64,000 nucleotides of DNA, from positions 1 through 64,000 of the forward strand of contig NZ_BOOA01000031.1 of NCBI RefSeq assembly GCF_016862995.1, written 5' to 3'. Both the position numbers and the translations under genes were made by a program. Source of the stretch: Acrocarpospora phusangensis (GTDB lineage Bacteria; Actinomycetota; Actinomycetes; Streptosporangiales; Streptosporangiaceae). This document shows, in pieces, positions 20,903 to 54,249 of the stretch (position 1 is the stretch's first letter; every line of letters starts with the position of its first letter). Below the pieces are notes generated by a model, which did not search any database, had not been told where the DNA came from, and worked only from the letters and a program-made list of their open reading frames with translations.

Positions 20903-22564
20903 ATGGGTGACATGGGCTTACTCCGCCGCTCCTCCGATCCGCCTGCCCGGCCCCCAGACCTGCGCCCGCCCCGCTCGATGTGGTGGTGGATCATCCCCGG
21001 AGCGCTGCTCATCGGTGCTGCCGCCTGGGCCACCATGCAATGGCTGCTCGGGGACCTGACAACCCTGACCCCCGAGCAGGCCACCATCCGCATCGAGGCG
21101 GCCCGCACCGCGCTGGCTGCCGCGGCCGGTGTCGGTGCCGCGGTGACGCTAATGCTGGCGGTGCGCCGGCAGCGGCACCAAGAGCTGGCCACCGCGCACA
21201 CCACCCATGACGCCACCGAGCGGCGGGTCACCGAGCTGTACACCAAGGCCGTGGAACAGCTCGGCAATGCCCAGGCCCCTGTCCGGCTCGGAGGGCTGCA
21301 CGCACTGGAACGCCTCGCCCAGGACACCCCTCAACTCCGCCAGACGATCGTGGACGTGATCTGCGCCTATCTCCGCATGCCCTACACCCCACCGCCCGAG
21401 CATGAGGACCGGCAGGCGAAGATCCGGGCAGCGCACCGCGCCGTCCGGGCCCGAACCCGGCCATCCACTGATACGCCATGGCGTGATCCCGCGGAGGAGC
21501 GGCAGGTCCGCCTCTCCGCTCAGCGCATCCTGCGCGCCCACCTGCACTATCTGCAATCGAACGCACGCCGACGCTGGTGGCAGCGCCCATCTACGCCACC
21601 ACGGCTCTTCTGGCCCGACATCCGGCTCGACCTGACCGGAGCTACCCTCCTCGATCTGGACCTCTCCGCCTGCCGCATTGGCAACGCCCAGTTCGGCATG
21701 GTGGCCTTCTCCGGGGACGCCAGGTTCGACGGCACGACCTTCTCCGAGTCCGTCACGTTCGACCAGGCGACGTTCTCCGAGTCCGTCACGTTCGACCAGG
21801 CGACGTTCTCCGGGTCCGCGGTGTTCGACGAAGCGACGTTCTCCGGGTCCGCCAGGTTCGAAGGGGCGATCTTCTCCGGGTACACCAGGTTCGGCCAGGC
21901 GACCTTCTCCGAGGGCGCCGGGTTCGAGGGGGCGATCTTCTCCGGGTACGCCACGTTCGGCCAGGCGGCCTTCTCCAGGTCCGCCGTGTTCGGTCGGGCG
22001 GCCTTCTCCGGGTACGCCGTGTTCGACCAGGTGACCTTTTCCGGGTCCGCCGGGTTCGACGGGGCGACCTTCTCCAAGGACGCCAGGTTCGGCGGGACGA
22101 CCTTCTCGGGGTACGCCGTGTTCGGCGGGGCGATCTTCTCCGGGTACACCACGTTCGACGAAGCGACCTTCTCCGAGGACGCCTTGTTCGACAAGGCGAC
22201 CTTCTCCGGTCCCACCAGGTTCGACGAGGTGACTTTCTCCAGGTCCGTCAGGTTCGGCGGGGTGACCTTCTCCGAGTCCGTCACGTTCGACGAGGCCACC
22301 TTCTCCGAGGGTGCCGTGTTCGGCGGGGCGGCCTTCTCCGGGCACGCCGTGTTTAGTCAGGATGAGCAATCCAGGAATGTCGATCTCGACGGGGCGGCGG
22401 TATCTCCGGCGTCGGAAGCGAAGCGGGTGTGGCCAACTGGGTGGCGCGTAGAAAAGGCATCAGATGGACAGAGCGACGTCCTTAAGAAAGCCGACTCGGC
22501 AGCTACCGAGGGCGAAGCCCCACAACACTCCAGCGAGGCTATTTCAGATCCTCAGCGGGAGTAG
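20903..22564 (+). CDS. membrane-anchored pentapeptide-repeat protein
   Basis: Two N-terminal TM helices. About 45 consecutive pentapeptides of A(D/N/T)(F/L)S(G/E)-type, written as near-identical 10-aa units ('ATFSGSAVFDEATFSGSARFEG...'). Acidic C-terminal tail. Confidence 0.8.
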   Translation: MGDMGLLRRSSDPPARPPDLRPPRSMWWWIIPGALLIGAAAWATMQWLLGDLTTLTPEQATIRIEAARTALAAAAGVGAAVTLMLAVRRQRHQELATAHTTHDATERRVTELYTKAVEQLGNAQAPVRLGGLHALERLAQDTPQLRQTIVDVICAYLRMPYTPPPEHEDRQAKIRAAHRAVRARTRPSTDTPWRDPAEERQVRLSAQRILRAHLHYLQSNARRRWWQRPSTPPRLFWPDIRLDLTGATLLDLDLSACRIGNAQFGMVAFSGDARFDGTTFSESVTFDQATFSESVTFDQATFSGSAVFDEATFSGSARFEGAIFSGYTRFGQATFSEGAGFEGAIFSGYATFGQAAFSRSAVFGRAAFSGYAVFDQVTFSGSAGFDGATFSKDARFGGTTFSGYAVFGGAIFSGYTTFDEATFSEDALFDKATFSGPTRFDEVTFSRSVRFGGVTFSESVTFDEATFSEGAVFGGAAFSGHAVFSQDEQSRNVDLDGAAVSPASEAKRVWPTGWRVEKASDGQSDVLKKADSAATEGEAPQHSSEAISDPQRE

Positions 22565-38669: not shown

Positions 38670-38788
38670 GCGCCCAAGCTAGCCGAGGATCACAGTTCGG
38701 CGTGACGATATGAATCACTTTCGGGTTGCGCGGGACAGCGGCTTCGCGGTTGTTCGCGCGCCCGGTGAGCTATTGCCACTAACCTTCT

Positions 38789-40459
38789 GTGCTCATGCTG
38801 CTACTGCGGGTCATCGCATCCTTCGTCCTGTTATCGCCGCCCGTTCCCAGCACGGAGGTGGGCCAGCTGCTGGGGGTGCCCGCGTACTTCGCGCCCGCCA
38901 CCTGGGGGCGGCTGAGCGGCCCCGGGATCGCGGTCGCCAACCCGGTCTCCGGGCCGGGACGCACCGTGGACGCCGAGCTCGCGCAGGCCATGCGGGCGGC
39001 GCACGAGCGCGGCGTCACCGTGCTCGGCTACGTGACCACCGGCTACCTCGGGCGGACCGGCAGAGTCACCCGGTTCGGCGAGACCGGCCGCGCCGCCTGG
39101 CTGGCCCAGACCCAGCAGGAGATCGCCGCCTGGTACCGCCTCTACGGCGAGCACGGCCTGACCGGCGTCTTCCTGGACGAGGTCGCCGACGACTGCGCCT
39201 CCGCCGACGGCTACCGCGACCTGCGCGCCTTCACCCGCCGGTACGACCCGGCCGCCCGCCTGGCCGCCAACCCCGGCACCGGCGTGCCCGAATGCTTCTC
39301 CGACGTCGCCGACGTGCTCGTCTCCTTCGAGGGCGACCTGGAGACCTACCGCGGCTGGCAGCCCCCGCAGTGGCAGCTCACCCAGGACCCCCGCCGCTTC
39401 TGGCACCTCGTCCACGACGCCCCCGCCCCGGCCGAGGCCATGAACCTGGGCAAACAACGCAACGCCGGATACATGTACGTGACCCCCGACGTCCTCGCCA
39501 ACCCCTGGGACACCCTGCCCGGCGACGACTACCTGGCGGCCGAGAAACAGGCGGCGCAGGCCACCGACACCGTGCCGCCGTCCCGTCCGGGCCAGCCGGA
39601 GGCGGTCCGCCGCGACCTGGTCAGCCTGTCGCTGCGCTGGTCCGCGTCGCCGGACGCCGTCGCGTACGAGGTCTACGTGGACGGCCAGCACGTCACCGGC
39701 ACCCTCGGCGCGACCCCCGCCGTCGAACTCGCCCAGCTCAGGTCCGGCCGGCCGTACGAGATCCGGGTCCGGGCCAGGGACCACGCCGGCAACCTCTCCC
39801 ACTTCAGCCCGCCGGCCCGGCTCTCCACGCTCCCGTGCCCCGGCGTACGGCCCGCGCCGCCGGAGGACCTCGCCGCCGCCCAGATCCGCCCGTCCGGGCT
39901 GCGCCTGAGCTGGACGGCCTCCCCGGGCGCGCACGCCTACGACGTCTACCGCGACGGCCGCCTCATCTCCACCACCCCCGGTACGGCTCTCGCCGTCGGC
40001 GCGCTCAGCCCCGCCACGCCGTACACCTTCACGGTCGTCGCCAGGAACGACGCGGGCGGCGCGTCCGGACCCGACCTGACCGTCACCACCGCCACGGCCG
40101 GAAGCGCCCCCATCACCGACCCGGCGGGCGAGATCGGCCCCGACTCGGTCGTCTACTCCGTCCGGTACGGCACCGCCTTCGACGTGCACCAGGTCCTCCT
40201 CGACCTGGACGGCGACGAGACCACCGGCCTGCCCGTGCTCGGCCTGGGCGCCGACCACCTGGTGGAGAGCGGCTGGCTGTTCCGCCACCAGGGCCCGGCG
40301 TGGGCCTGGACCCCGGTCGCGCCCGTGGACCTGGACGTCTCCGACGACCTGCACGTGTGGCGTGTCCCCAAGTCCGCCCACCCGGCGATCTCCGCGCATC
40401 GGGCGGTCTTCCGCGGCGCCACCCCGGACTCCTACAGCGAGGTGATCACCGTCGAGTGA
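38789..40459 (+). CDS. spherulation-specific family 4 (spherulin-4-like) protein with two fibronectin type III domains
   Basis: N-terminal spherulin-4-like region ('VTVLGYVTTGYLGRTG'). Two FN3-like repeats ('YEVYVDGQHVTG', 'YDVYRDGRLIS'). The start may be internal. Confidence 0.65.
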   Translation: MLMLLLRVIASFVLLSPPVPSTEVGQLLGVPAYFAPATWGRLSGPGIAVANPVSGPGRTVDAELAQAMRAAHERGVTVLGYVTTGYLGRTGRVTRFGETGRAAWLAQTQQEIAAWYRLYGEHGLTGVFLDEVADDCASADGYRDLRAFTRRYDPAARLAANPGTGVPECFSDVADVLVSFEGDLETYRGWQPPQWQLTQDPRRFWHLVHDAPAPAEAMNLGKQRNAGYMYVTPDVLANPWDTLPGDDYLAAEKQAAQATDTVPPSRPGQPEAVRRDLVSLSLRWSASPDAVAYEVYVDGQHVTGTLGATPAVELAQLRSGRPYEIRVRARDHAGNLSHFSPPARLSTLPCPGVRPAPPEDLAAAQIRPSGLRLSWTASPGAHAYDVYRDGRLISTTPGTALAVGALSPATPYTFTVVARNDAGGASGPDLTVTTATAGSAPITDPAGEIGPDSVVYSVRYGTAFDVHQVLLDLDGDETTGLPVLGLGADHLVESGWLFRHQGPAWAWTPVAPVDLDVSDDLHVWRVPKSAHPAISAHRAVFRGATPDSYSEVITVE

Positions 40460-41374
40460 TCAGCTGTCCCACAGGTCGGGCACCCGGCTGCTGAGCTTCT
40501 CGGCCGCGGACCACAGTTCCAGCAGCCAGGGCACGGCCTCCCCGGTGCCCGCCACCAGCGAGCGGTCCTCCGTGAGCGTGCCCACCCGCGGGTCGAAGGC
40601 GCGCCCGGAGGGGTCGGTGACCCGCAGGCCCGCCTCGGTGGCGATCAGCGCGCCCGCGTGCAGGTCCAGCTCGCCGATCTCGTAGCCGACGATGCCGTCC
40701 AGGTCGCCCCTGGCCAGCATGACCCAGCTCAGCAGCGGCGCCCACAGCCGCAGCACCCGGGTGGACTCCCGGTCGAGCACCAGCCGCAGCGCGGTCGCGG
40801 TCGGGTCCTCCGGCGTGACCCGGTAGCCCTGGTTCCACGCCAGCGTCGGGCGGCTGCGCGGGGGCCGCTCCCGCCGGACGAGCGGGCGGTCCCGGCCCGC
40901 GAACGCGCCCTGGTGGCGCACGGCCGACCAGGTGTGCCCGGAGCCCGGCTCGTGCACCGCCGCCACGACCGGCAGGCCGCGCAGGCAGAGCGTGATCCCC
41001 ACCGTGTAGACGTTGAGGCCCATCGCGATGTTGTTGGTCCCGTCCAGCGGGTCGACCAGCCAGTTCCACCGCACGTCGCCGCTGAGCGTGCCCGCCTCCT
41101 CCGAGACGATCTGGTGGTGCGGGTAGCGGGCCCTGATCCGGTCCACGATCAGCCGCTCGGCGGCCAGGTCCAGCTCGGTGACCAGGTCGCCCTCGCTCTT
41201 CGCCCAGACGTCGAAGTGCCGGTCGGACCGGCCGCGCAGCAGGCTCCCGGCGCTCTCGGCCGCGTCGATCGCCACATACCGGGCCTGTTGAAGGTCAACC
41301 GTCTCCCGCCGCATCCCTGAAGCCCTTCTCGCCGGGATCACCGGTCCAGTCCCAAGACTTTCGCCGCGATGCAC
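40460..41374 (-). CDS. inositol monophosphatase family protein
   Basis: 'WLVDPLDGTNN' IMPase motif. Confidence 0.8.
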   Translation of the reverse strand: MHRGESLGTGPVIPARRASGMRRETVDLQQARYVAIDAAESAGSLLRGRSDRHFDVWAKSEGDLVTELDLAAERLIVDRIRARYPHHQIVSEEAGTLSGDVRWNWLVDPLDGTNNIAMGLNVYTVGITLCLRGLPVVAAVHEPGSGHTWSAVRHQGAFAGRDRPLVRRERPPRSRPTLAWNQGYRVTPEDPTATALRLVLDRESTRVLRLWAPLLSWVMLARGDLDGIVGYEIGELDLHAGALIATEAGLRVTDPSGRAFDPRVGTLTEDRSLVAGTGEAVPWLLELWSAAEKLSSRVPDLWDS

Positions 41375-41931
41375 AGTTCGTCGTGTCCCCCGGGATGCCT
41401 GATCACGTCATGTGAGGGCGCCGCTACGTCTCCCAGACTAAGTTCCTGGTTCTCGCGATGGTTGTCGGCCATCACAAGTGTGGCGGTCGCGCCAAGGGCG
41501 GCGGTGGCGTGGAAGCGGCCCGCCGCGAGGCCGTAGAACTGGCCGGCGCCGAAGTGCTCGGAGGCGACCGTGGTCTGCCGGACCAGCCGGGAGGTGCGCC
41601 GCAGCCGGTCCCCCGCCGAGCCGGGCCGGATGGTGAAGACCCGGTGGGTGGGCGCGGTGTCGTCCGGCACCACGTCGATCAGGTCGTTGCGGAGCGTCCC
41701 GGTGAGCACGTAGCTGGTCAGGCCCCAGCTGTGGGCGTGCACCGGGGAGGTGGTGGGCGCGTCGAACACCAGGTCGTCCGACCAGACGTGCAGGCAGAGG
41801 CCGAACCTCGGGCCGCGGTGCATGGGCACGCACAGGAAGCCGAGCGGGTGCCGGACCGTGACGGGGCTCGATCTGAGCAGGTCGTGCGCGGCGGCCAGGA
41901 ACGCGCCGTCGGGGGAGGCGGCCAGCAGCAT
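41338..41931 (-). CDS. hypothetical protein (possibly cupin-like); start approximate
   Basis: Protein-like composition from 'MLLAASPDGAF...'. Paired His motifs 'HVW...HAHSW'. The upstream 55 codons of the listed ORF are Arg/Ser/Pro junk. Confidence 0.45.
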   Translation of the reverse strand: MLLAASPDGAFLAAAHDLLRSSPVTVRHPLGFLCVPMHRGPRFGLCLHVWSDDLVFDAPTTSPVHAHSWGLTSYVLTGTLRNDLIDVVPDDTAPTHRVFTIRPGSAGDRLRRTSRLVRQTTVASEHFGAGQFYGLAAGRFHATAALGATATLVMADNHRENQELSLGDVAAPSHDVIRHPGGHDELCIAAKVLGLDR

Positions 41932-41983
41932 GCGCCGCAGGCCCGCCGCGTGTTCGCCGGCCTGGTGCGGCCCGCCGGTCCGC

Positions 41984-42967
41984 TCAGGAGTACGGGTTCT
42001 TCGGCCGGATCGCCTTGGCGACGATCTGCGGTATGAGGTCATGGGAAACCACCAAGGGGACGTCGAGTGCGTCGAAGAGCCGGAGGACCTCATCGACGGT
42101 CGGCTCGGCGCTGAGCGCGATTCCGTCTGCTTTATCGAGATGGACCGGCCTGGCCTGATCGAGACTGGTCCGCAGTTCGGTTTCGTACGAGGCGTAGAGG
42201 AAACTCTGCCGGGGCACGACCATGGCGGGCCCGTCGTCCTGGGTGATCACCAATCTGTCGTCGGACATATCACACCGGAAGATTCCCATGGTGGTGGCCA
42301 GGCCGATCCGCACGTCCAGCAGGCTGTACATGGCCTGGTACCAGCAGGCCGCGAAAATCGTGGCGTACGACTCCAGCTGGGTGCGCTCGGTCGTCCATAT
42401 TTCGCCGGTTCCGTCCGGGAGTTCCGAGACTGAGCGGCGAAAACGGGCGTACCGATCGCACACGGTTAAGTCGGTGGGGTCCAGGATTTCCAGGCGGACG
42501 TTGAGCGGGCGGCGTTCCAGACGGGCGCGGCGAATCAGCTCCGGCAGGGTCACGGCGCGGATGTACGTTCCGGTGCCGCCGCGGAACAGCCACCGCCCGG
42601 TGTTCTCCCGCGCCCGGGCGAGTTCCTCGGCCACCGACTCCCGACGTGACCTGATCTGGGCCAGCGACTGCTCGCCGAGCGCCACCGTGGCCTGCGCGAG
42701 CACCGTGTTGGCGCGGGCCATCTCGGCGGCCACGCCGTCCATGCCGCGCAGCGTCTCGACGATCTCCTCGGTCATCTCGGCCCGCCGCCAGCGGTCCCGC
42801 AGAATCGACAGGGAAAGCACGCCCAATGTGACCAGAACGGCATTTCCGGTCACTGCTTCCGACGCGACGGACGTGATACCCAGGATGCCCACCACGACCG
42901 CGATGCCCAGAGCCAGTACGGCGTCCGCCTCGTTGGCGAGCCTGCCGAGTATTCGCAGCAACGTCAC
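41984..42967 (-). CDS. membrane-anchored hypothetical protein (2 TM, then a coiled coil, then an unknown C-terminal domain)
   Basis: 327 aa, balanced composition, N-terminal TM helices. Confidence 0.55.
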   Translation of the reverse strand: MTLLRILGRLANEADAVLALGIAVVVGILGITSVASEAVTGNAVLVTLGVLSLSILRDRWRRAEMTEEIVETLRGMDGVAAEMARANTVLAQATVALGEQSLAQIRSRRESVAEELARARENTGRWLFRGGTGTYIRAVTLPELIRRARLERRPLNVRLEILDPTDLTVCDRYARFRRSVSELPDGTGEIWTTERTQLESYATIFAACWYQAMYSLLDVRIGLATTMGIFRCDMSDDRLVITQDDGPAMVVPRQSFLYASYETELRTSLDQARPVHLDKADGIALSAEPTVDEVLRLFDALDVPLVVSHDLIPQIVAKAIRPKNPYS

Positions 42968-43093
42968 CCGACCCCCAGGAATGGTGATGCGAGTAGGGTA
43001 ACAGGGAAATAGCGGGAAATGCAGTCCTAGTTACTCGGAAATCGGGGCGGGGGGAATCTGGGGAATTACACCGATGTATGCGATCCCGGGAAA

Positions 43094-43564
43094 TCACCGT
43101 TCGAAGATTGTCACGGTGATCCGGGTGGGGGCCTCAATCCGGATGATTCGCGTCACCCGGGGGTTGCGCTCCAGTAATGGCCGCTCGATGAGCGTCCAGA
43201 AGTTCAGGGTGGCCAGGTCGTAATCCATCGGCAGGATCACCCGCACCTCCCCGGAACAGGCCACCGCGAACCGCGCCGACAACATCGCCCACGCGTCCTC
43301 GGCTTCCTCGCCCGGCGCGGACGGCGGGAGCACGACCCCGCGCAGCGACATGACGGCTCCGATGGTCTCGCCGCCGAGCGTCCGGGCGAGTTCCTCCGCG
43401 TAGGCGGCGTCCACGCCCGACCAGAAGATCGCCCGGTTGGGGGAGGTGCGGACATCGAGCAGGGCGACGCGGTCACACAGTCCGCCGGGGGCGACGCGGG
43501 GTCTGTCCAGCACAATCGCGTGTGCCATGGTCTGAGAATGCGGCAGCGACCCAGCTGATCTCAA
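43094..43564 (-). CDS. hypothetical protein
   Basis: 156 aa, balanced composition. The start is possibly at MAHAIV. Confidence 0.45.
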   Translation of the reverse strand: MRSAGSLPHSQTMAHAIVLDRPRVAPGGLCDRVALLDVRTSPNRAIFWSGVDAAYAEELARTLGGETIGAVMSLRGVVLPPSAPGEEAEDAWAMLSARFAVACSGEVRVILPMDYDLATLNFWTLIERPLLERNPRVTRIIRIEAPTRITVTIFER

Positions 43565-43599
43565 GGGGAGCCCGTCCGGGCCCGCCGATCACGACGGAA

Positions 43600-44230
43600 C
43601 CGATCTCCCCCACCGCCCACCCTGCGCTTTGGAGGGTTGACCAGGCCTGCGGGGCCTGCCCTGCCTGGGTGTGGTTCTGGCGGGGACGTTTCCACGTTTT
43701 GGCCAGCGGTGGTTGTTCCCGCCCGCCCACCCCGTTGCCCTGGCGGGCTGCCTGGCCTCACGGGGTGTACCCGCCCGGAGTAACTCCGACCGGGATACCC
43801 GTGCGCGATTTGCCGGCAGTGGCAGTTCCCGCCCGCCACCCCACCGAACCGGCAGGCAGAGCCAGGGCCGGGCAGGCTGGCCGACGGGGATAGCACCCGT
43901 GCCGCTTCCGGAGGTCTCGGCAGGGGGTCGATGGTCGCGCGTCCGGGGGCCTGGCTGTGTGTCAGGCTGCGCGAGCGTGAAAGGGGTGGGTGGGGCAGCA
44001 CCCGTGCCGCTTCTGGGGGTCTCCGCAGGGGGTCGATGGTCGTGTGTCCGGGGGCCTGGCTGTGTGGCCGGCTGCGCGCGAGCGCGAATAAGGGTGGGTG
44101 GGTGGGGCAGCAACTGTGCCGCCTTCGGAGGCCTGCGCAAGGGGGCCCGGCCGTGTGTCCGGGGGCCCGGCCGTGTGGCCGGCTGCGCGCGAGCGCGAAC
44201 AAGGGTGGGAGAACCACGGTAAGCCGTCGC
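43600..44230. repeat. degenerate tandem repeats (period about 105-110 bp; three clear units at 43889-44215) containing G-quadruplex-type motifs
   Basis: Direct reading: units start near 43889, 43996 and 44108 ('GCACCCGTGCCGCTTC...GGGGGTCGATGGTCG...GTCCGGGGGCCTGGCTGTGTG...GCTGCGCG(CG)AGCG...GGGTGGGTGGG'). Older, more diverged copies lie at 43700-43880. G4-type motifs 'GGGGTGGGTGGGG' and 'GGGTGGGTGGGTGGGG'. Confidence 0.8.
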
Positions 44231-44303
44231 GCAGCGACAAAGAGGGGACATGCGAGGCAGCCCGGGATGGGGGTGCCATCCCGGGCTGGGTGGTGTGGAG
44301 GGG

Positions 44304-44570
44304 TCAGTTGTGCTGGGGGCGCTGGGGCTCCCGGAACGGTGACGAGGACTGTGAGCGCGAGGATGGTGTGGACGAGGTCGACTGCGTGGTTGAGGTGCGC
44401 GATGTCGACGAGGCCGCCGACGTGCGCGAAGAGGATGAGCGTGCCGCCGAGGAGCGGCTGGCCGATGAGTCCTGGGAGCCTTCCCGCCGGGCGGTCCGGG
44501 CTTCCTTGATCGCGGCCTTCTTGGCCTTACCCGTGGCCTTGGCGGACTTCTTCTTCGGAGTGTCAGGCAT
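44304..44570 (-). CDS. small basic lysine-rich protein with Ser-rich tail (speculative)
   Basis: 88 aa 'MPDTPKKKSAKATGKAKKAAIKEARTARREG...'. G-rich RBS-like stretch upstream. GC3-rich codons. The low-complexity tail lowers confidence. Confidence 0.3.
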   Translation of the reverse strand: MPDTPKKKSAKATGKAKKAAIKEARTARREGSQDSSASRSSAARSSSSRTSAASSTSRTSTTQSTSSTPSSRSQSSSPFREPQRPQHN

Positions 44571-44703
44571 CTTGCCCCCGTTTGTCGTGTTATGCGGCCT
44601 ATGGAGCGGTTGATACCCATTTCAGCCAGTTAACACCCGTAACCTGGAGTCATGCCAGAATGATCCCGACGATTATTCTGGATGATTGTTCTGGAGGCCT
44701 CGC

Positions 44704-46221
44704 GTGTTCGATCTGGCGACGTTGCACGAGGCGCTCGCGGCAGCCGTACCGGACCGGGACTGCCTGGTCTGGCGGGACCGGCGGCTGAGCTGGCGGCAGG
44801 TGCACGAGCGTACGAACCGGCTCGGGAACCTGCTGCACGGCCACGGCCTGGGCGTGCCCGACCGCGTCGCCGTGTACCTGCACAACGGCCCCGAGTACCT
44901 GGAAACCCTGCTCGCCGCCCACAAGGCCCGCACGGTGCCCTTCAACGTGAACTACCGGTACACCGAACACGAACTCGCCTACCTGTTCGCCGACGCGAAG
45001 CCCCGCGCGGTCGTCTACCACGCGACCTTCGCGCCCCTCGTGGAGAAGGCCGCCAAGGACGCGCTCCTCATCCAGGTGCCGGACGAATCCGGCAACCCGC
45101 CTCCCGCGGGCGCGCTCGACTACGAGGAGGCCATCGCCGCCGCCGCACCGGACCCCGTCCCCGTCCGGCCCACCCCGGACGACCTGCACATCATGTACAC
45201 CGGCGGCACCACCGGCATGCCCAAAGGTGTGCTCTGGCGCATCGGCGACCTCCTCGACGGACCCCTCGGCGTCCGGTTCCCGTCCCTGGACGCGCTGGTC
45301 GCCCACGCCGTGGCCGCCCGCCGCAAGGTGCTCCCCGCGGCCCCGCTCATGCACGGCACCGGCCTGTGGTTCTCCCTCAGCGGCTGGTGCCTCGGCTCCA
45401 CCGTCGTGATCGCGGACCAGGTGGACCGCTTCGACCCGGCGGGCCTGCTGACCACCCTCGAACGCGAACAGGTGACCGGCACGATCATCGTCGGAGACGC
45501 GTTCGCGCGCCCGCTGGCCGAGGAGCTGGAGCGGCGCCCGTACCGGCTGGCGCTGGGCATGATCGGCACGTCGGGCGCGATGCTCGGGGACGGCCTGGCC
45601 GCGCGACTGGCCGAACTGATCCCCGGCGTGCGGATCGTGGACACCCTGGGCTCCTCGGAGTCCGGCAACAGCGCGGTCCGCCTGGACGGCGGGCCCTTCG
45701 TGGCGGGCCCGGACACCGTCGTGCTGAGCGCGGACAAGACCAGGCGCCTGGAGCCCGGCGGCGAGGAGATCGGCTGGCTGGCCAGAGGCGGCCCCATCCC
45801 GCTGGGCTACCTCGGCGACCCGGAGAAGACCGCCGACACGTTCGTGGAGATAGCGGGCGAGCGCTACGCCATCCCCGGAGACCGGGCCAGGCTCCGCGCC
45901 GACGGCACCGTCGAGCTGTACGGCCGCGAGGCCACCGTGATCAACACCGCCGGCGAGAAGGTCTACGCCGAGGAGGTCGAGGTCGCGCTCCGCGAGGTGC
46001 CCGGCGTGGTGGACGCCGTGGTCGTGGGCCGCCCAAGCGAGCGGTGGGGCCAGGAGGTGGTGGCGGTCGTCCAGAGCGACGTGCCCGACGAGGTGCTGCG
46101 CGCGGCGTGCGCGGAGCGCCTGGCCCGCTTCAAGCTACCGAAGGCGTTCGTCAGGGTCCCGCATGTGCGCCGTCATCCGAACGGGAAGGCTGACTACGCC
46201 TGGGCTCGTGAGGTGATCTAG
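44704..46221 (+). CDS. long-chain acyl-CoA synthetase (AMP-binding, FadD-like)
   Basis: 'YTGGTTGMPKG' AMP-binding motif. A GTG start at 44704 ('VFDLATLHEALAAAVPDRD') is more plausible than the listed ATG at 44686. Confidence 0.8.
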   Translation: MFDLATLHEALAAAVPDRDCLVWRDRRLSWRQVHERTNRLGNLLHGHGLGVPDRVAVYLHNGPEYLETLLAAHKARTVPFNVNYRYTEHELAYLFADAKPRAVVYHATFAPLVEKAAKDALLIQVPDESGNPPPAGALDYEEAIAAAAPDPVPVRPTPDDLHIMYTGGTTGMPKGVLWRIGDLLDGPLGVRFPSLDALVAHAVAARRKVLPAAPLMHGTGLWFSLSGWCLGSTVVIADQVDRFDPAGLLTTLEREQVTGTIIVGDAFARPLAEELERRPYRLALGMIGTSGAMLGDGLAARLAELIPGVRIVDTLGSSESGNSAVRLDGGPFVAGPDTVVLSADKTRRLEPGGEEIGWLARGGPIPLGYLGDPEKTADTFVEIAGERYAIPGDRARLRADGTVELYGREATVINTAGEKVYAEEVEVALREVPGVVDAVVVGRPSERWGQEVVAVVQSDVPDEVLRAACAERLARFKLPKAFVRVPHVRRHPNGKADYAWAREVI

Positions 46222-46600
46222 TCACCTCGAACCAGACGGTGGTGCCGTGGTCGGTGGTCATCGCCCCCCAGAGCGGGGTGAACTGGGAGACCAGGTGCAC
46301 GCCCCGGCCGAGCGCGGGCCGGGTCCAGCACGCGCAGCGGGACTGCGCGGAGAGCACCACCCGGCAGGTGTCCCGCGTGGTGGTGACCGCGATCGTGTAG
46401 CCCGCGAGATCGCCGCAGGCGACCGCGTGGCGGAGCGACTCGGAGATCAGCTCGCCGGCCAGCTGGACGGCGTCGTCCCGGCACGGATGGGCGGCGCCGA
46501 GGGAGTGCGAGATGAACCGGCGGGCCGCGCCCGCCTCCGCCGCGTCCCCGAAATAGGGTCGCGAGATCACGGTTCTCCCCGCGCGGTTGAGAATTGTCAT
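46151..46600 (-). CDS. ATP-binding protein (histidine-kinase-like ATPase / anti-sigma-factor-like)
   Basis: About 150 aa from 'MTILNRAG...'. Typical partner of XRE/DUF397 pairs in actinomycetes. The 3' end overlaps the convergent FadD gene by about 70 nt. Confidence 0.55.
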   Translation of the reverse strand: MTILNRAGRTVISRPYFGDAAEAGAARRFISHSLGAAHPCRDDAVQLAGELISESLRHAVACGDLAGYTIAVTTTRDTCRVVLSAQSRCACWTRPALGRGVHLVSQFTPLWGAMTTDHGTTVWFEVTRSPHEPRRSQPSRSDDGAHAGP

Positions 46601-46745
46601 TCCCTGATAACTCCCTGTGCACCCATGAAGGCAGCGCTCACTTGAGTCCGTGGCAGACTTCGATTCATCCTGCACCGTGGATTACATCTTTGCAATCCTG
46701 CGAATGCAATATTGCAAAGTGTCGTTTGTGGGGAGTTGTCCGCTT

Positions 46746-47588
46746 ATGAGCGTGGGACGTAGTCCTTCGGTCCGGTTGAGGCGCCTGGCCGGCGAACTCA
46801 TCCGGATGCGCTGTGAGGCGGGCTATTCACGCGAAGAAGTGGCCCAGATACTCGGACTGGCCAGTTCCACGGTGTATCGGATCGAGACCGGGCACACCCG
46901 GCCGCAGGGCCGGACCATGCGGGATCTCCTCGCTCTCTACGGCGCCAACGGACACGAGCGGGACGCCCTGCTCGAGCTGATCCGGGACGCCGGGCGTCGT
47001 GGGTGGTGGCACCATTTCGGGGACGTGCTCCCCGGGCCGTATGTCGGACTGGAAGCGGAAGCCGCCAGTGTCCGGAACTACGAGCCGGTGATGCTGCCCG
47101 GACTCCTGGAGACCGAGGCGTACGCCCGCGCGGTGATCGGTGCGGCTCTCGTGGAGGACCCCGAAGAGATCGAGCGGCGGATCACCGTACGGCTGGAGCG
47201 GCAACGGCGCCTGTCCGACCCGGCCTTCGAACTCTGGGTGGTTCTCGACGAGGCAGCCCTGCGGCGTCCCGTCGGGGGACCGTACGTCATGGCCGAGCAG
47301 TTGCGCAGGCTCCAGGAGATCGCCGTCCAGTCGAACGTCACCATCCAGGTGCTGCCGTTCGACGCGGGGGCGTACCTGGGGATGGGCAACCCGCTGGCGA
47401 TCCTCACCTTCGCGCATCCCGAGGATTCGGACGTGGTCTTCCTGGAGAGCGCGGGCGGTGAGCTCTACCTGGAGAGCGCCGACGACGTGCGCCGCTACGC
47501 CACGGTCTTCGATCATCTCCGCGCGGCCGCGCTCAGCCCGGAGAAGTCCAGAGAGAAGATCGAATCGGTCGAGAAGGAGATGGCATGA
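46746..47588 (+). CDS. XRE-family helix-turn-helix regulator with DUF5753 domain
   Basis: HTH 'REEVAQILGLASSTVYRIETG' from 'MSVGRSPSV'. ATGA overlap with the downstream DUF397 gene. Confidence 0.75.
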   Translation: MSVGRSPSVRLRRLAGELIRMRCEAGYSREEVAQILGLASSTVYRIETGHTRPQGRTMRDLLALYGANGHERDALLELIRDAGRRGWWHHFGDVLPGPYVGLEAEAASVRNYEPVMLPGLLETEAYARAVIGAALVEDPEEIERRITVRLERQRRLSDPAFELWVVLDEAALRRPVGGPYVMAEQLRRLQEIAVQSNVTIQVLPFDAGAYLGMGNPLAILTFAHPEDSDVVFLESAGGELYLESADDVRRYATVFDHLRAAALSPEKSREKIESVEKEMA

Positions 47589-47803
47589 AGGGCGTTCAGC
47601 CTACGGATCTGGCCGACGCTACGTGGCGGAAGGCCACCCGATCGAACACCCAGGGCAACCAGTGCGTCGAGGTCGCCCAGCTCAAGCACGGTATCGCCGT
47701 GCGCGACTCCAAGGACCCCGACGGTCCGAAGCTGATGTTCACCCCGGGCGAGTGGGACGCCTTCGTGCACGGGGTTAAGGGCGGGGAATTCGACCTCTCC
47801 TGA
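47585..47803 (+). CDS. DUF397 domain protein
   Basis: 'WRKATRSNTQGNQCVEVA' is the DUF397 hallmark. 72 aa. Confidence 0.8.
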   Translation: MKGVQPTDLADATWRKATRSNTQGNQCVEVAQLKHGIAVRDSKDPDGPKLMFTPGEWDAFVHGVKGGEFDLS

Positions 47804-47880
47804 CCCTGCATAGAAACCCGTACGGCCCGTGCGCCAGACCTCCCGGAGCGCGGGCCGTACGTCATGGTTGACCAGCCGGG

Positions 47881-48237
47881 TCAGCTGCAGGCGGCGCGCA
47901 GTTCCGAGTCGAAGTTGGCGCTCTTGGTGGTGAACTCGGTGATGGAGTTCGGGTCGGCCGGGTCGATCTTGAGGTCGCCCCAGGTGGTGGCCATGGTGTC
48001 GAGGGTCTTCTTGAGGTCACCGTCGGCCTTGGCGGAGATGTCGTTGAGCTTGCCGGCCAGGTCGGTGTTGGCCTTGTTGATGGCCTCGATGTCGGTGCCC
48101 GCGCCGGTGACCTGAGAGGTGTAGTCGAGCAGGGCCTTGGTGGCCTCGGCGCACAGCGCGGTGTTGGCTCCCAGTCCGCAGGCGGTCAGGAACGTGGTCG
48201 CGGCGACGGCGACGACAGTGAGGCGAACGATTCTCAT
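47881..48237 (-). CDS. hypothetical lipoprotein
   Basis: Signal peptide with lipobox 'LTAC'. 118 aa. Confidence 0.6.
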   Translation of the reverse strand: MRIVRLTVVAVAATTFLTACGLGANTALCAEATKALLDYTSQVTGAGTDIEAINKANTDLAGKLNDISAKADGDLKKTLDTMATTWGDLKIDPADPNSITEFTTKSANFDSELRAACS

Positions 48238-48506
48238 TGGGACGGAAGCCTTCCTAGTGATCTCGGGACATCAGTAACACTAGGGAGGTCGGCTTGCGGG
48301 TTGCTTTCACCTGGCTTACAGCTCTTTATACGGAACTTATCTGCACGAAGAGTTCTGAAAGATTCAGGTATTTCCGCTGGGTCTGACGGGGTTTTCAAGG
48401 GCAGACAAGCATGATCACTGGGAGCGCTCCCATACGAGAGCCTAATTAGACGCGTTTGTCAACCCCCGTTCCGGTGCGGCTCGCGACCCGCGAGCCGCAC
48501 CGGCCG

Positions 48507-50015
48507 TCAGGTTCCCCGCGCGTCGAACGCGGCCTTGACGCGATCCAGCGCCGCGTCCAGCTTCGACTTCAGTCCCGGCGTCAGCGCGCCCTCGCGCAGC
48601 CGGTCGTTGAGCTTGATCCGGATGTTCCCCACGGCACTCGGATCATTGTTCGCGATCATGTTCTGCACCAGGGTGCGCAGGTCCTGGACGGCCAGTGAAG
48701 TGATCTCCCCGCTCCCGGCCCCGGAGTCCAGCAGCGCCACGAAGGCCGCCGCCTCCTCCTCGACCGAGCCCGAGCTCACCGGGCTGGCCAGGGGCAGCGG
48801 CGCCAGCGTCCTGGTAGCGCCCGGCTTCTTGCCCGTCGGCGAGGGCTGCGGCCGGGTGCCGGGCGTCGGGTCGGGATCCGGATCGGCACCGGACCCGCCG
48901 CCGTCGTTGTCACCGTCGTCACCGGCGTCGGCGGAGCCGGTGTCCCGGTCGGGTTCCGGCTCGCCGGTGCGATCCGGGTTGAGGATCGGCCTGGCCCGGT
49001 CGGTGGCGCGCGGGGTCGACTCCGCGGCCTCCCCGGTGCGCTGGGTGGCGTGGGCCGCCGGGGTCGGCAGGGTCTCGGCGGCCACGCCCGCGGGGGCGAG
49101 GGTGGGCTGCTGCCAGAGCAGCACCCCGAGCGCCAGCACGCCGGCCACCCCGGCCGCCCACTTCAGCCAGCCGGGCTCCCGCCCGGTCTCGCCGGGCATC
49201 AGGGCCTCGGCCACCTCGCGCGCGCTCGGCCGTACGGTCGGGTCGGGGGACAGGCACTGCCGGCACAGCGCCGCGATCTCCGGCGGCAGCCCCGGCACGC
49301 TGTCCGGGCTGGGCGGCGGGCCCTCCCTGCGGGCCGCCTCGATCCCCTCCCAGGTCGTCTCCGGGTACGGCGGGACGCCGGTGAGCATCTCGTACAGCAG
49401 GACGCCCAGCGAGTAGACGTCCACGGCCGGGGCGGCGGGTAGCTCCTTGAGCCGCTCCGGCGCCACGTAGGGCGGGGTGCCGAAGTCGGCCACCAGCTCG
49501 TCGTCGGCCTCGCCGGCGAACACGGCGATGCCGAAGTCGAGCAGCTTCGCCCCGTCCGAGGCGAGCAGCACGTTCTCCGGTGTGACGTCGCGGTGCACGA
49601 TGCCCCGCTCGTGGGCCGCGGCCAGCACCAGGGCCAGCCGGGCGGCGATGGCGGTGGCCTCCGCCCACGGCAGCGGGCCCTCGCTGAGCCGGTCGGCCAG
49701 TGACCTGCCTTCCAGGAGCCGCATCACGACGTACGCGGCGAGCCGGCCACGGGGGGTGACCGTCTCGCCGTAGTCGTACACCTCGATGGCGTCCGGATGG
49801 ATCAGCCGGGCGGTGGCCCGGGCCTCGCGCCTGATCAGCTCGCGGCCCGGGTTGTCGCCGTCCAGTGCCCCGTCCAGCACCTTGATCGCCACAGTCCGCT
49901 GTAAGGACTGGTCGAAGGCACGCCAGATCACCGACATGCCTCCCGTGGCGATCCGCTCCTGAAGCAGATAGCGACGGGTCAGGACGTCGCCTTCGGCCAG
50001 CTCAGGTTGATTCAC
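48507..50015 (-). CDS. Ser/Thr protein kinase (Hanks-type), single-pass membrane with Pro/Asp-rich extracellular linker
   Basis: Kinase subdomains 'AIKVL', '[11 protein letters not shown]', 'DFGIA' and 'GTPPYVAPE'. TM '[16 protein letters not shown]'. Confidence 0.85.
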
Positions 50016-51006
50016 GGACGACCAGTTCCGTGGGCAGCACGGGGTTGCCCTTGGGTATCTCGTCCTCGGCGAGGGCCATGAGCAGCATGCGCGCCGCCAG
50101 GGCGGCGAGCTCCTCGACCGGTTGGCGGACGGTGGTGAGGGCGGGGGTGGTGTGCCTGGCGATGGGCGCGTCGTCGAAGCCGATCACCGCGACGTCGTCG
50201 GGCACCTTGCGCCCGGCCCGTCGCAGCGCCTGCATCGCGCCGGCGGCCATCACGTCGGACGCCGCGAAGACGGCGTCCAGGCGCGGCGCGCGCTGCAGCA
50301 GCCACTGCATCGCGTGCGCGCCGGAAGCGTGGGTGAAGTCGCCGTAGGCCACGGGCATGTCGGTGATGCCCGCGTCCCTGAGCGTCTCCCGGAAGCCGTC
50401 GAGACGGTCCCGGGCGGCGGGCAGGGTCGGCGGCCCGGCGATGGTGGCGATCACGCGGCGGTTGCCCAGCAGCAGGTGTTCCGCGGCCTGCCGCCCGCCG
50501 TCCCGGTTGTCCATGTCGACGTACGGGAGATCCACGCCGTCCGGCGGCCGGCCCGCGCTGCGCACCGGGATGCCGGACGCGGCGAGGGTGACGGCCAGTG
50601 GGTGCCTGGCCCGGGCGCCCACCAGGAGCACCCCGTCCACGGCCCCCGCGACCAGCGGTGGGGCCGCGATCGCCGCGGTGGCGGGGGTGGCCGTCATCAC
50701 CACGAGGGGGACCCCGTGGGCGGCGAACACCTCCTCGGCCGCCGACAGCAGTCGGGCGTAGAAGGGTTCGCTGAACAGCCGTGGAGTCTGCTCGCAGATC
50801 ACGGCGGCCACGATCTGGTCGGTGCGTCTGGCGGTCGAGCCCCGAGGGGCGCGGCGCCTTACATAACCAAGGCGGGACATGGCGTCGTGCACCTGTCGCC
50901 TGGTCGATGTAGTGACGCGTACCGAGCCCGTCAGGACTCGGGAAGCGGTTGCCGGGGAGACGCCAGCAGCGGCGGCTACCTCTGCGAGGGTGGGAAGATC
51001 GGCCAT
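50002..51006 (-). CDS. LacI family transcriptional regulator
   Basis: HTH 'TLAEVAAAAGVSPATASRVL' plus a periplasmic-binding-protein-like domain. 14-nt overlap with the downstream kinase gene. Confidence 0.85.
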   Translation of the reverse strand: MADLPTLAEVAAAAGVSPATASRVLTGSVRVTTSTRRQVHDAMSRLGYVRRRAPRGSTARRTDQIVAAVICEQTPRLFSEPFYARLLSAAEEVFAAHGVPLVVMTATPATAAIAAPPLVAGAVDGVLLVGARARHPLAVTLAASGIPVRSAGRPPDGVDLPYVDMDNRDGGRQAAEHLLLGNRRVIATIAGPPTLPAARDRLDGFRETLRDAGITDMPVAYGDFTHASGAHAMQWLLQRAPRLDAVFAASDVMAAGAMQALRRAGRKVPDDVAVIGFDDAPIARHTTPALTTVRQPVEELAALAARMLLMALAEDEIPKGNPVLPTELVVREST

Positions 51007-51042
51007 CCGGTCTCCTCAGGCCCGAAGTGTGTCACGCGGCGG

Positions 51043-51060
51043 CTTGGGAGCGCTCCCAAG
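51043..51060. promoter_or_regulatory. perfect 18-bp palindrome CTTGGGAGCGCTCCCAAG (LacI-type operator) 37 bp upstream of the LacI start
   Basis: Direct reading. Core GAGCGCTC is the same as the symmetric lac operator. Confidence 0.55.
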
Positions 51061-51100
51061 AACGTATCACTGTTTCGGGCGTGTCAACAGAGGTTTCATA

Positions 51101-51120
51101 GCGATGAAACCTTTCATCGT
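51101..51120. promoter_or_regulatory. perfect inverted repeat GGTTTCAT-agcg-ATGAAACC
   Basis: Direct reading. AT-rich palindrome in the 640-bp LacI/DUF4331 intergenic region. Confidence 0.45.
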
Positions 51121-51709
51121 TTTTCACCGGCCTTGCACACACGGGCAGGGTAGATGAATACCTGCCAATCTGTGGGGATATCGGGGCAATCGAGACTCTA
51201 AAAACTGGAAAAATGACGTTTTGTAGTCAAAGATGTACATAATGTAGTCAAATATCTTGACATCGAGAATTCACATGTTTCCCCGGCTATTTGTCCGAGT
51301 CGGCGGGGGCGCGGCCGGCTCGATCTCCTACACAGCGCAGGAGCAGGCACTCTGTTCGACAAAGTGTTTGATGATTATCGGAGGGCCGCGGTGGGTCCGG
51401 GTCAGAGCGGGGGGACTGGACAGCGGAGGGGCGGCCCCGCGCAAATTGCCGGAGGGGTGAGAGGGGTCGCCGGCGCCCGCCATCCGGCCGGTTTGACCTC
51501 CCCCTGGGTACGTTCACAGGCCCGGCGTTACCACCGTCCGTTAGACGCCGGGTGTTTCGGTGCTCAAGTGGAGCGTATGTACCCGATCTTTCATATCCGT
51601 CCCGATTGCCATGGGCGATAGGGGGGACGATCACCACTGATCACCCTGTGTAATGGAAATCGTTACACATCGTGATACTGGAAACTGGTACATCTCGATG
51701 AGGAAAAGC

Positions 51710-53008
51710 ATGAATCAGGCCTCGAAGCGGATCGCGGCTGGAGGAGTCGCGGGCTCGATGCTCGCCGCGGGCTTCCTGGCGGGTCCCGGCACCCTTCCCG
51801 GTCAGGCGTCCAACCACCTCGCCGCCCCGACCCAGATTCTCGACCCGCGTACGGACGTCACCGACCTGTACGCCTTCACCAGCCCCGACCGCCCCGACAC
51901 GGTCACCGTCATCTGGAACCACCTGCCCTTCGAACTGCCGGACACCCCGCTGCCCTGGTACCGCTTCGCCACCCAGGGCTTCTACGACCTGCACTTCGAC
52001 AACACCGGCGACGGCAGACCCGAGCTGACCTACCGGTGGCGGTACCACGACGGCCGACCGGACCTCCGCGAGCAGCCGCCGCAGAGCTACCGGCTGGAGG
52101 TCCTCCAACCGGGGCGCGGGCTTGAGGTGCTGCTGGCGGACGCGCCGGTCGGGCCGTACCCCGTCGAGGACCCCGTCGAGGACACCGTCGGGGCCGGGTT
52201 CGCGGTGGAGTGGAAGCGGGCCGTCGTGCCGCTGCCCGGGGGCGGGCAGACCTTTTCCGGCCAGGTCAGGGACCCGTACGCGGAATTCCGCGTGCTCGCA
52301 GGCGGCACGCCGTTCAACGTGCACTCCATCGCCGTCCAGCTGCCGAAGACGGAGCTGGCGCTCAACGGGGACGTCGGACGCAACCCGGTCGTGGGGATCT
52401 GGGCGACCTCGTCGCGGCGGTCGCTCGACCTGCGGGACGCGGCGGCGCGGCCGTACCGGCAGGTGTCGCGGGAGGGGTCGGCCATGTTCGGGGACGGTCT
52501 GCTGCCGCAGCCGCTGCGGGACGCGTACCAGAACGTGTCCTCGCCGCACACCGACCACGCGTGGGCGGAGCTGCGGGCGGCGGTGCACCACCCGCTCGTG
52601 TCCAGGACGCTCGCGACGGGGCTGCCGCCGAAGGAGCCGCGCATCGACCTGGAGCAGGTCTTCCTCACCGGCATCGCCGAGGCCACCGGGCCGATCAGGA
52701 TCGACCTCAACGCGCACCTGCTCAACCGGGACGCCGATCCCGCCAGGATCGTCCCGGCCGAGATGACCCGGCTGAACATGACGACGCCGGTCACCGCCAG
52801 GCCCGACCCGTACGGACTGGCCGGCGGCGACCCGCAGGGCTGGCCGAACGGGCGGCGGCTGACCGACAACGTGACCGTGGCGTTCACGCGCCTGGCCAGA
52901 GGCGAACCCGTGGGCGGGGGCGCGCCGCCGGCGGCCTGGCTGAGCCCGGCCAAGGGCGTCACCGGCTTCCCGTACGAGGCCGCCCCAGAACTCCGGAGGC
53001 AGCCATGA
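51710..53008 (+). CDS. secreted DUF4331 domain protein
   Basis: 'TDVTDLYAFTSPDRPD' is the DUF4331 hallmark. Signal peptide. RBS AGGAAAAG before the ATG at 51710 (the alternative ATG 51698 is also in frame). Confidence 0.7.
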   Translation: MNQASKRIAAGGVAGSMLAAGFLAGPGTLPGQASNHLAAPTQILDPRTDVTDLYAFTSPDRPDTVTVIWNHLPFELPDTPLPWYRFATQGFYDLHFDNTGDGRPELTYRWRYHDGRPDLREQPPQSYRLEVLQPGRGLEVLLADAPVGPYPVEDPVEDTVGAGFAVEWKRAVVPLPGGGQTFSGQVRDPYAEFRVLAGGTPFNVHSIAVQLPKTELALNGDVGRNPVVGIWATSSRRSLDLRDAAARPYRQVSREGSAMFGDGLLPQPLRDAYQNVSSPHTDHAWAELRAAVHHPLVSRTLATGLPPKEPRIDLEQVFLTGIAEATGPIRIDLNAHLLNRDADPARIVPAEMTRLNMTTPVTARPDPYGLAGGDPQGWPNGRRLTDNVTVAFTRLARGEPVGGGAPPAAWLSPAKGVTGFPYEAAPELRRQP

Positions 53009-54249
53009 GACGCGCCGCGTCCGTGCTGGTCACCATCGCCGCCCTGGTGGCCGTGGCGCTCATCGTGTACGGCGACCCGGACGAGGACACCGGCCCGCCC
53101 CCGATCCGCGCGTTCGCGTTCGACCTGCCCGGGCGCATCGAAGCCGACCGGCGCTACCTGACGCGGGCCCCGGGCGACGCCACGGTCTGGGCCGAGCTGG
53201 GCCTCGGCTACCTCGAGCAGGCCCGGGTCACCGCGAACCCGGCCTACTACCCGAAGGCCGAGAACGCGCTGCGCGAGTCGCTGCGGCTGCGGCCCGCCGG
53301 CAACGACACGGCCCTGGTGGGCATGGCCGCGCTGACCGGCGCCCGGCACGAGTTCGACGGCTCCCGGGACTGGGCGATCAAGGCCGCCGCCGCCAACCCG
53401 GCCAACCCGCTCGCCCACGGCCTGCTCTCCGACGCGTACCTGCAGCTCGGCGACCCGCGCAAGGCCCACAAGGCCCTCCAGGCCATGCTGGACACCAAAC
53501 CCGGCGTGGCCTCCTTCGTCCGCGCCGCCCACCTCTTCCGGCTGAAGAACCAGTACGGCCGGGCCTCCGACGCCCTCAAGATGGCCCTGGACTCGGCCGC
53601 CGGCATGACCGACATCGCCGACATCCACTGCCGCAGGGGCGACCTCGCCTGGCACACCGGCCGCCCGTCGCTGCGCTCGTACGAGCTGGCGCTGGCCGCC
53701 CACCCCGGCTACCCGGCCGCGCTGGCCGGCCGGGCCCGCGCGCTGGTTTCACTCGGCCGCGACCGGGAAGCCGTCCGCGCGTACGCGACCGCGGTCGCCC
53801 GCAACCCGGAGCCGCAGACCCTCATGGAATACGGCGAACTGCTCAAGTCCCTGGGCCGCGAGGCCGAGGCCGAGACCCAGTTCCGGGTCTTCCGCGCGGC
53901 GCTCAAGCTGTTCGCCGCCGGCGGCGTCATCGACGACCTGACGGCGGGCCGGTTCGAGGCCGACCACGGCGACCCGATGACCGCGGTCGTGTATCTGGCC
54001 GGGGAGTGGTCGCGCCGCCCCACGAGCGAGGTGTCCGACGCGTACGCTTGGGCGCTGCACCGGGCGGGACGGGACCGGGACGCGATCAGGTTCGCGCGCG
54101 CCGACAGCGCGCTGGCGGCCTACCACCGGTCCGAGATCGAGCGCGCCCTGGGCCGGCGGGCCGCCGCGAAGCGCAGCCTGGCCCGGGCGCTGGAGCTCAA
54201 CCCGAACCTGCCTGTCCTGCGGAGAATGGAGGTGGCGCGTGGACGGTGA
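53005..54249 (+). CDS. membrane-anchored tetratricopeptide-repeat protein (DUF4331 partner)
   Basis: ATGA overlap with the DUF4331 stop. N-terminal TM 'VLVTIAALVAVALIVY'. TPR-like helical repeats. Confidence 0.7.
   Translation: MRRAASVLVTIAALVAVALIVYGDPDEDTGPPPIRAFAFDLPGRIEADRRYLTRAPGDATVWAELGLGYLEQARVTANPAYYPKAENALRESLRLRPAGNDTALVGMAALTGARHEFDGSRDWAIKAAAANPANPLAHGLLSDAYLQLGDPRKAHKALQAMLDTKPGVASFVRAAHLFRLKNQYGRASDALKMALDSAAGMTDIADIHCRRGDLAWHTGRPSLRSYELALAAHPGYPAALAGRARALVSLGRDREAVRAYATAVARNPEPQTLMEYGELLKSLGREAEAETQFRVFRAALKLFAAGGVIDDLTAGRFEADHGDPMTAVVYLAGEWSRRPTSEVSDAYAWALHRAGRDRDAIRFARADSALAAYHRSEIERALGRRAAAKRSLARALELNPNLPVLRRMEVARGR

Follow-up and report, generated by a model that had tools for sequence, protein, structure and literature searches.

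Several described systems are built from repeated DNA and bear comparison with the locus analyzed here. The mycobacterial MIRUs are a dispersed family found at many loci and oriented within operons, with short ORFs that overlap the flanking stop and start codons. CRISPR arrays consist of short repeats (~23–55 bp) separated by unique spacers, and the repeats of type III antitoxins (i.e., of ToxI/ToxN-like systems) measure ~34–47 nt and lie immediately upstream of a gene for a ToxN-like endoribonuclease. Among human minisatellites, CEB1 and CEB25 have units of 39–52 bp in tens of copies, with a G-quadruplex (G4) motif in every unit. For CEB1, G4 motifs have been found to drive repeat instability when G4 unwinding fails (PMC2673046; PMC5491262).

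We analyzed a tandem array in a 64,000-nucleotide stretch of the Acrocarpospora phusangensis genome (hereafter the window; 70% GC), where it occupies a 720-bp spacer between a 145-aa gene and a small Lys-rich ORF. The array is known from one genome, the sole A. phusangensis genome on record. Related DNA for comparison comprised 80 loci (L001–L080; 1.53 Mb) from Streptosporangiales and other actinomycetes, with syntenic loci retrieved by a contig search using the fadD-like neighbor; by amino acid identity of fadD, the nearest available relative is A. corrugata (84%), followed by Herbidospora (73–75%). The explanation that we favor, and that we hold to be reasonably probable, is a locally generated, non-coding and probably functionless minisatellite (i.e., a potential VNTR).

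Architecture of the array and its spacer

The spacer is bounded on the left by the 145-aa gene (43094–43531, minus strand; GC3 0.87), which lies outside the repeat and is assigned an ADP-ribosyl cyclase (ARC) domain on the basis of PDB sequence matches, and on the right by the small Lys-rich ORF (44304–44570, minus strand). Farther right, a fadD-like acyl-CoA synthetase gene begins at a GTG at 44704 (plus strand), with GGAGG before the start codon; its product has 100% identity to an A. phusangensis protein. These are the flanks given by an earlier sequence-only reading of the window (a hypothetical gene, a Lys-rich ORF and a fadD-like gene), and we confirm them here. In minus-strand order, the small ORF (44570→44304) is followed by a hairpin (44288–44258), the repeat units proper (hereafter B units), an upstream periodic block (the A block) and the 145-aa gene (43531→43094), which places the B units ~355 bp upstream of the ARC gene in that sense.

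The array (43887–44215, plus strand) is made up of three contiguous head-to-tail units of 105–112 bp without spacers, all of which were delimited by Tandem Repeats Finder (TRF) and a repeat search of the window, and B1 also by alignments. Unit B1 (43887–43991, 105 bp) has a G-rich end, GGGGTGGGTGGGG, at 43983–43995 that runs into B2; B2 (43992–44103, 112 bp) ends in GGGTGGGTGGGTGGGG (44092–44107), which runs into B3; and B3 (44104–44215, 112 bp) ends in GGGTGGGAG. TRF, which had been proposed as a check with the sequence-only reading, detects the array at 43892–44209 with a period of 105, 2.9 copies, 85% matches, 5% indels and a score of 387, and in the repeat search the three copies line up in register, 105 and 111–112 bp apart. 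In a blastn self-comparison the array matches itself at E = 6e-63, and a 32-nt core of the unit is seen three times vs 0.00 expected from shuffles. The sequence-only reading had described a longer tandem array; its three contiguous units stand, whereas the part that it placed upstream does not consist of direct copies (see below).

Pairwise identity between units is 89% for B1–B2, 81% for B2–B3 and 76% for B1–B3. With 11–24% divergence, the duplications are not recent, and as the differences are mostly transitions (T↔C, G↔A) with no base-specific bias, they follow the pattern expected from undirected decay. Repetition is also nested within the units. Specifically, every B unit holds two sub-repeats of ~21 bp (20–22 bp) of the form GGGGG..GG..GTGTG.CC, and B3 contains an internal 20-bp tandem duplication (GGGGGCCCGGCCGTGTGGCC ×2.1; 44141–44182, plus strand; TRF, 95% identity). 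The sub-repeat pair of B3 is thus re-duplicated or homogenized, and a unit that is itself made of such sub-repeats is slippage-prone at several scales.

Copies elsewhere and the synteny breakpoint

The array is unique in the data searched. Neither the 64-kb window nor the 80 related loci (1.53 Mb) yielded a further B-unit copy in pattern, blastn and nhmmer searches, and blastn of the array against PLSDB plasmids and INPHARED phages returned no copy. Viral searches gave either no match or three 17-mer chance matches, and a metagenome pattern search gave one match (L081), which we rejected as a relative of the array: it has ~30 nt in common, carries no repeat and is a chance match. These searches of the window and of the related-locus, plasmid, phage, viral and metagenome collections gave no support to a dispersed or mobile family, although further copies may lie elsewhere in the A. 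phusangensis genome.

While this sequence is unique, arrays of its kind are common. The 1.53 Mb of related DNA contain 14 loci with tandem arrays whose period is at least 40 bp (~1 per 110 kb), including 89-, 99- and 141-bp arrays with 2–2.6 copies, and the window itself holds a second such array. This second intergenic repeat (1352–1473; 50 bp ×2.5, 86% identity, lower GC) lies between two minus-strand genes, one of them for PRA isomerase (1525–2154), and its internal inverted motifs (CCATGGATC / GATCC..GG) may represent a set of operator sites. A coding tandem repeat is also present in the window: a 553-aa ORF (20903–22564, plus strand) contains 33 nt ×19.5 at 21705–22348, i.e., ~20 copies of the 11-residue ATFSGxAxFDx, which is pentapeptide-repeat-like and follows an N-terminal membrane segment; the opposite-strand translation of 20903–22564 has no match in Pfam.

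To the right of the array, the sequence is shared with A. corrugata. The small Lys-rich ORF (MPDTPKKKSAKATGKAKKAAIKEAR...REPQRPQHN) has both termini conserved in that species (L001 3543–3764, minus strand) around a variable Ser/Thr/Gln-rich middle, and encodes 88 aa here vs 73 aa there. It has no match in Pfam, NCBIfam or PADLOC, and is a real gene. Just downstream of it lies a hairpin with a perfect 13-bp stem and a 5-nt loop (44258–44288, minus strand; repeat search), which we treat as a terminator and which is kept in A. corrugata (aligned with L001 3497–3526). Farther right, a 13-bp direct repeat, GATT(A/G)TTCTGGAT, occurs twice at 44671–44695, directly before the fadD-like start codon, and is shared with A. 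corrugata (L001 3874–3898). A regulator of the acyl-CoA synthetase gene probably uses this repeat as its operator.

To the left of the hairpin, A. corrugata has, within ~20 bp, a different gene of 1047 aa and no array. Homology with A. corrugata on this side is not significant (570 of 1000 shuffles score equally well), and on the same count we rejected the apparent alignment by which the right array end would be a leftover of the A. corrugata neighbor gene. Synteny extends only rightward (44707–54101), and since the A. corrugata homology ends at the hairpin, the array sits ~40 bp inside a synteny breakpoint. The segment at 38.7–44.26 kb (38700–44257, ~5.5 kb) is absent from the syntenic A. corrugata and Herbidospora loci. 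Its genes encode a Spherulin4/fn3 protein, an inositol monophosphatase, unknown proteins of 251 and 327 aa (the 327-aa one having TM helices at its N-terminus and a lower GC3) and the ARC protein. No mobility gene is recognizable in this variable region.

This position raises the question of whether the array could be the trace or terminus of a segment that moves or recombines, such as a MITE-like element with sub-terminal repeats, an accretion of att sites or a hotspot of cassette exchange. More specifically, the 5.5-kb species-specific segment would have brought in the ARC gene, with the array at its right edge. Both the general proposal and this specific form of it we consider unlikely. The array does end ~40 bp from the exact stop of A. 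corrugata homology, the segment is missing at the syntenic loci, the A and B blocks are in inverted orientation, and recombination moves polymorphic-toxin cassettes, of which ARC domains are typical (PMC12356396; PMC3482391). However, no tRNA, integrase or transposase gene was found near the array, and neither convincing terminal inverted repeats nor a target-site duplication were seen, only short inverted matches of G/C motifs (73–87%). The folding of the whole spacer (z = -0.65 and -1.24) likewise counts against terminal inverted repeats, as does the lack of a second copy in any collection searched against mobility.

The upstream block and G-quadruplex motifs

Upstream of the B units, the spacer is also periodic. 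The A block (43589–43886, minus strand) comprises ~2.7 decayed units of ~110 bp, as delimited by the repeat search, alignment statistics and a junction alignment. Its core of 32–34 nt is found at 43699–43733 and 43809–43845, and more weakly at 43589–43622; in alignments against shuffles, A2 vs A3 reaches z = 7.2 over this 32–34-nt block and A1 vs A2 reaches z = 3.8. These motif-bearing 32–34 nt are far better kept than the rest of the unit, and the CCCGCCCGCC(C)ACCCC with which they end is reverse-complementary to the G-rich motif of the B units.

The sequence-only reading had taken this region for older direct copies of the B unit on a gradient of divergence. Direct copies are not borne out: a local alignment of 43540–43886 with the B units in direct orientation does not score significantly above shuffles (z = 0.16; 134 of 300 do equally well), the region shows a separate ~110-bp periodicity instead, and the gradient falls with the direct copies. 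In inverted orientation, similarity between the A block and the B units is marginal (z = 1.8), with the best segment in the right register up to the G motif at its end. Most simply, the A block may be read as an array of this kind that was copied in inverted orientation long ago and has since largely decayed.

A textbook G4 had also been proposed at the end of each B unit. This holds for B2, the only unit end with a complete set of four G3 tracts (44092–44107, plus strand; pattern search), but B1 has three tracts and B3 has two. A second tight motif, GGGGTGGGCGGGCGGG, lies inside the A block (43718–43733, minus strand; regex and pattern search). Loose G4 motifs (loops ≤7 nt) number 23–24 in the window and 19 per 100 kb in the related loci. 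The tight form, (GGGN)3GGG, occurs twice in the window, both times in the 720-bp spacer and on opposite strands, vs an expectation of 0.29 per window; 2 of 100 shuffles reach two. It is absent from both strands of the 1.53 Mb of related loci, where ~7 would be expected from dinucleotide shuffles of the window (~0.3 per 64 kb), which suggests that very stable short-loop G4s are possibly selected against in these related genomes. Thus, with only one unit carrying the full motif and the tight form nonetheless rare, the G4 argument is weaker per unit than first proposed, but not empty.

The motifs are also regularly spaced, at 110 and 110 bp for the C-rich and 108 and 111 bp for the G-rich ones, and both blocks share a period of ~105–112 bp, roughly ten helical turns. 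With three sites per orientation, there are six G/C-rich sites, and complete G4 motifs stand at only two of them.

These patterns could be taken as a cis-acting structural or regulatory element of DNA or RNA, in which six G/C-rich sites phased at ~ten helical turns form G4s or bind a protein. Such an element would insulate the ARC gene from read-through of the small ORF, or tune ARC expression. We find the element improbable, and these proposed roles equally so. It would account for the regular motif spacing, for tight G4 motifs on both strands that are otherwise missing from 1.53 Mb of related DNA, for the motif block being the best-conserved part of the A block, and for the minus-strand location of the array between terminator hairpin and ARC gene. 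On the other hand, four of the six sites lack a complete G4 motif, and the ARC gene has a plausible promoter of its own (read by eye, not flagged computationally) directly upstream of its start, which is predicted to be leaderless at 43531; some 355 bp separate it from the B units. Nothing similar was seen at any comparator locus, the ARC homologs examined are without such repeats, and a simple inverted duplication also predicts an equal period in both blocks.

Coding potential and the neighboring ARC gene

The array is non-coding. The codon-position GC signal over 43540–44250 is flat (0.6–0.8 in all three phases), in contrast to the flanking genes (GC3 0.87–0.97, GC2 ~0.5). A query that concatenated all six frames of the array has no homolog among 5.8 billion proteins, and the eight ORFs that overlap the array have no Pfam match at E ≤ 1. 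The sequence-only reading had anticipated this result: it held the array to be non-coding and the overlapping Pro/Arg-rich ORFs to be unlikely to be real, and named a gene for a repeat-domain protein as the alternative, for which we find no coding support. Indeed, long Pro/Arg-rich open frames are expected by chance in repeats that are T-poor and 72% GC.

The 145-aa protein next to the array has high-identity matches only in A. phusangensis and no match in Pfam, NCBIfam or PADLOC. In sequence searches of the PDB, it matches 9OUF (E = 1.4e-11), the toxin domain of Tac1 (PMC12356396), and 9RO8 (E = 8e-10), whose record reads “ADP-ribosylcyclase toxin.” A single-sequence AlphaFold2 model was unusable (pLDDT 36), and the fold assignment rests on these sequence matches to solved structures. 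A HMMER search returned 472 remote homologs, most of which carry the domain at the C-terminal end of a longer protein, as is characteristic of polymorphic-toxin domains. The “hypothetical” gene is therefore predicted to encode a standalone, previously unannotated ARC-domain protein of CD38/Tac1 fold.

In an alignment with Tac1, the protein keeps the essential Glu573 (IERP) and Trp540, and has Gly at the position of Tac1 Glu516 (CD38 Glu146). This Glu promotes hydrolysis of the cyclic intermediate, and is Ala in the non-toxic, cADPR-producing Nac1 (PMC12356396). Two close ARC homologs are followed by an Imm74 immunity gene; no Imm74 gene follows the ARC gene in the window. With the catalytic Glu and Trp kept, Gly at the Glu516 position and no Imm74, the protein is a candidate Nac1-like, non-toxic cADPR-forming enzyme, i.e., a possible member of the recently proposed bacterial ARC enzymes that produce cADPR (PMC12356396). 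This neighboring standalone gene is a more useful by-product of the analysis than the array.

The usual C-terminal position of the ARC domain, often after Pro/Gly/Thr-rich linkers, also admits the idea that the array is a decayed coding repeat. On this view, the 145-aa gene would be what survives of a polymorphic toxin, namely its C-terminal ARC domain, and the array would derive from the low-complexity linker or N-terminal part of that toxin. The B1–B2 spacing is exactly 35 codons, and a minus-strand ORF (43589–44620) is open across the whole array in the frame of the ARC gene, with a single stop codon between them. Nevertheless, we regard this origin as very unlikely. There is no leftover GC3 signal in any frame of the array, the flat codon statistics argue against coding repeats, and the array ORFs lack Pfam matches. 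The N-terminal regions of 149 ARC homologs did not match the array (tblastn with composition correction; best E = 0.03), and the B2–B3 spacing of 112 bp is no multiple of 3. The long ORF partly overlaps the conserved small ORF in another frame and is thus spurious in that part, and open frames are in any case expected from the composition of the repeats.

Origin of the array

Our favored explanation, the locally generated minisatellite, supposes that replication slippage or unequal recombination twice duplicated a unit of ~105 bp in the 720-bp, fast-evolving spacer of a species-specific, rearranged segment of the A. phusangensis chromosome. The G-rich unit junctions, (GGGT)n, belong to the repeated sequence and may stall replication and so favor slippage. 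The upstream 110-bp periodic block would be an older, inverted and decayed copy of the same kind of array, and neither an encoded product nor a sequence-specific function would be needed; no result of the analysis indicates a function. We count in its favor the three head-to-tail units with a nested sub-repeat, unit differences of the kind left by undirected decay, the lack of a coding or RNA signal, the lack of other copies in the collections searched, the lack of the array in A. corrugata and of the surrounding segment at syntenic loci, and the commonness of such arrays in related DNA. Counted against it are the 11–24% divergence, a copy number known from a single genome, and the presence of the rare tight (GGGN)3GGG twice and on opposite strands. 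In the A block, the better-kept motif might owe its state to selection instead of neutral decay, and a period of ~105–112 bp, close to ten helical turns, would also suit phased binding sites.

Those last points can be pressed further. The two opposed blocks would then be one functional element, with six sites capable of G4 or i-motif formation phased at ~ten turns on the edge of a recently acquired segment. We think this a long shot, and equally so that the element would be a structural insulator, a regulator or a recombination hotspot for an orphan ARC (CD38-fold) gene. If true, a conflict-system or cADPR-producing gene would here be linked to a bacterial cis-element based on G4s.

An RNA product finds little encouragement in the folding data. 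At gathering score, no Rfam family matches the window, and at E ≤ 10 only unrelated sub-threshold families, all well below gathering score, are found at 43300–44800. On both strands, the B units fold no better than shuffles (z -0.5 to +1.2) and RNAalifold on the three units finds no compensatory pairs; two A units fold at z of only -2.2 and -2.6. We thus rejected a structured RNA family, with no Rfam match, a unit fold at z ~0 and no covariation. A repeat-built non-coding RNA, e.g., a transcript from upstream of the ARC gene that resembles a type III antitoxin array, is barely credible: the minus-strand layout of terminator, tandem repeats and small toxin-family gene without a recognizable immunity gene loosely recalls ToxI/ToxN, but units of 105–112 nt contrast with the ~34–47 nt of type III arrays, ~355 bp of other sequence intervene before the ARC gene, the array has no Rfam match, stable or conserved fold, or covariation, and the neighbor is predicted to be an NAD-utilizing ARC enzyme, not a ToxN-type endoribonuclease.

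Comparison with known systems

Like CRISPR arrays, the locus has regularly spaced repeated motifs, but its units are contiguous, 105–112 bp long and without unique spacers; we rejected a CRISPR array on these grounds, as the sequence-only reading had done from the contiguity of the units. A diversity-generating retroelement (TR/VR) was also rejected, there being no adenine bias between units and no reverse-transcriptase domain among the genes scanned (37.8–46.7 kb).

The array resembles type III toxin–antitoxin loci (ToxI/ToxN) in that its tandem direct repeats precede a small toxin-family gene and have a terminator close by. Unlike those loci, the unit here is ~3 times longer and shows no RNA structure or covariation, and a 355-bp gap separates it from a neighbor assigned to the ADP-ribosyl cyclases. 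The unit length, the gap and the ARC-fold gene led us to reject a type III array.

With the human CEB1 and CEB25, the array shares a GC-rich repeat with G3 runs and very short loops, and G-rich junctions plausibly promote slippage here by analogy with CEB1 (PMC2673046). However, it has no more than three copies, of which B2 alone carries four G3 tracts, and we thus rejected membership of the G4-forming minisatellite class, in which every unit carries a G4.

The closest likeness in kind is to bacterial VNTRs (e.g., mycobacterial MIRU-VNTR), with which the array shares head-to-tail, spacer-free, non-coding units in an intergenic, actinobacterial setting and a presumed origin by slippage or recombination. 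It differs from MIRUs in being confined to one locus in the 64-kb window and 1.53 Mb of related loci, and in its longer unit of 105–112 bp. By its features, the array belongs with intergenic VNTRs and minisatellites, and is of an ordinary kind. As one more species-specific intergenic minisatellite in a high-GC actinomycete it matters little; at most, it could serve as a VNTR marker in A. phusangensis and illustrate how very tight (GGGT)n G4 motifs occur in nature.
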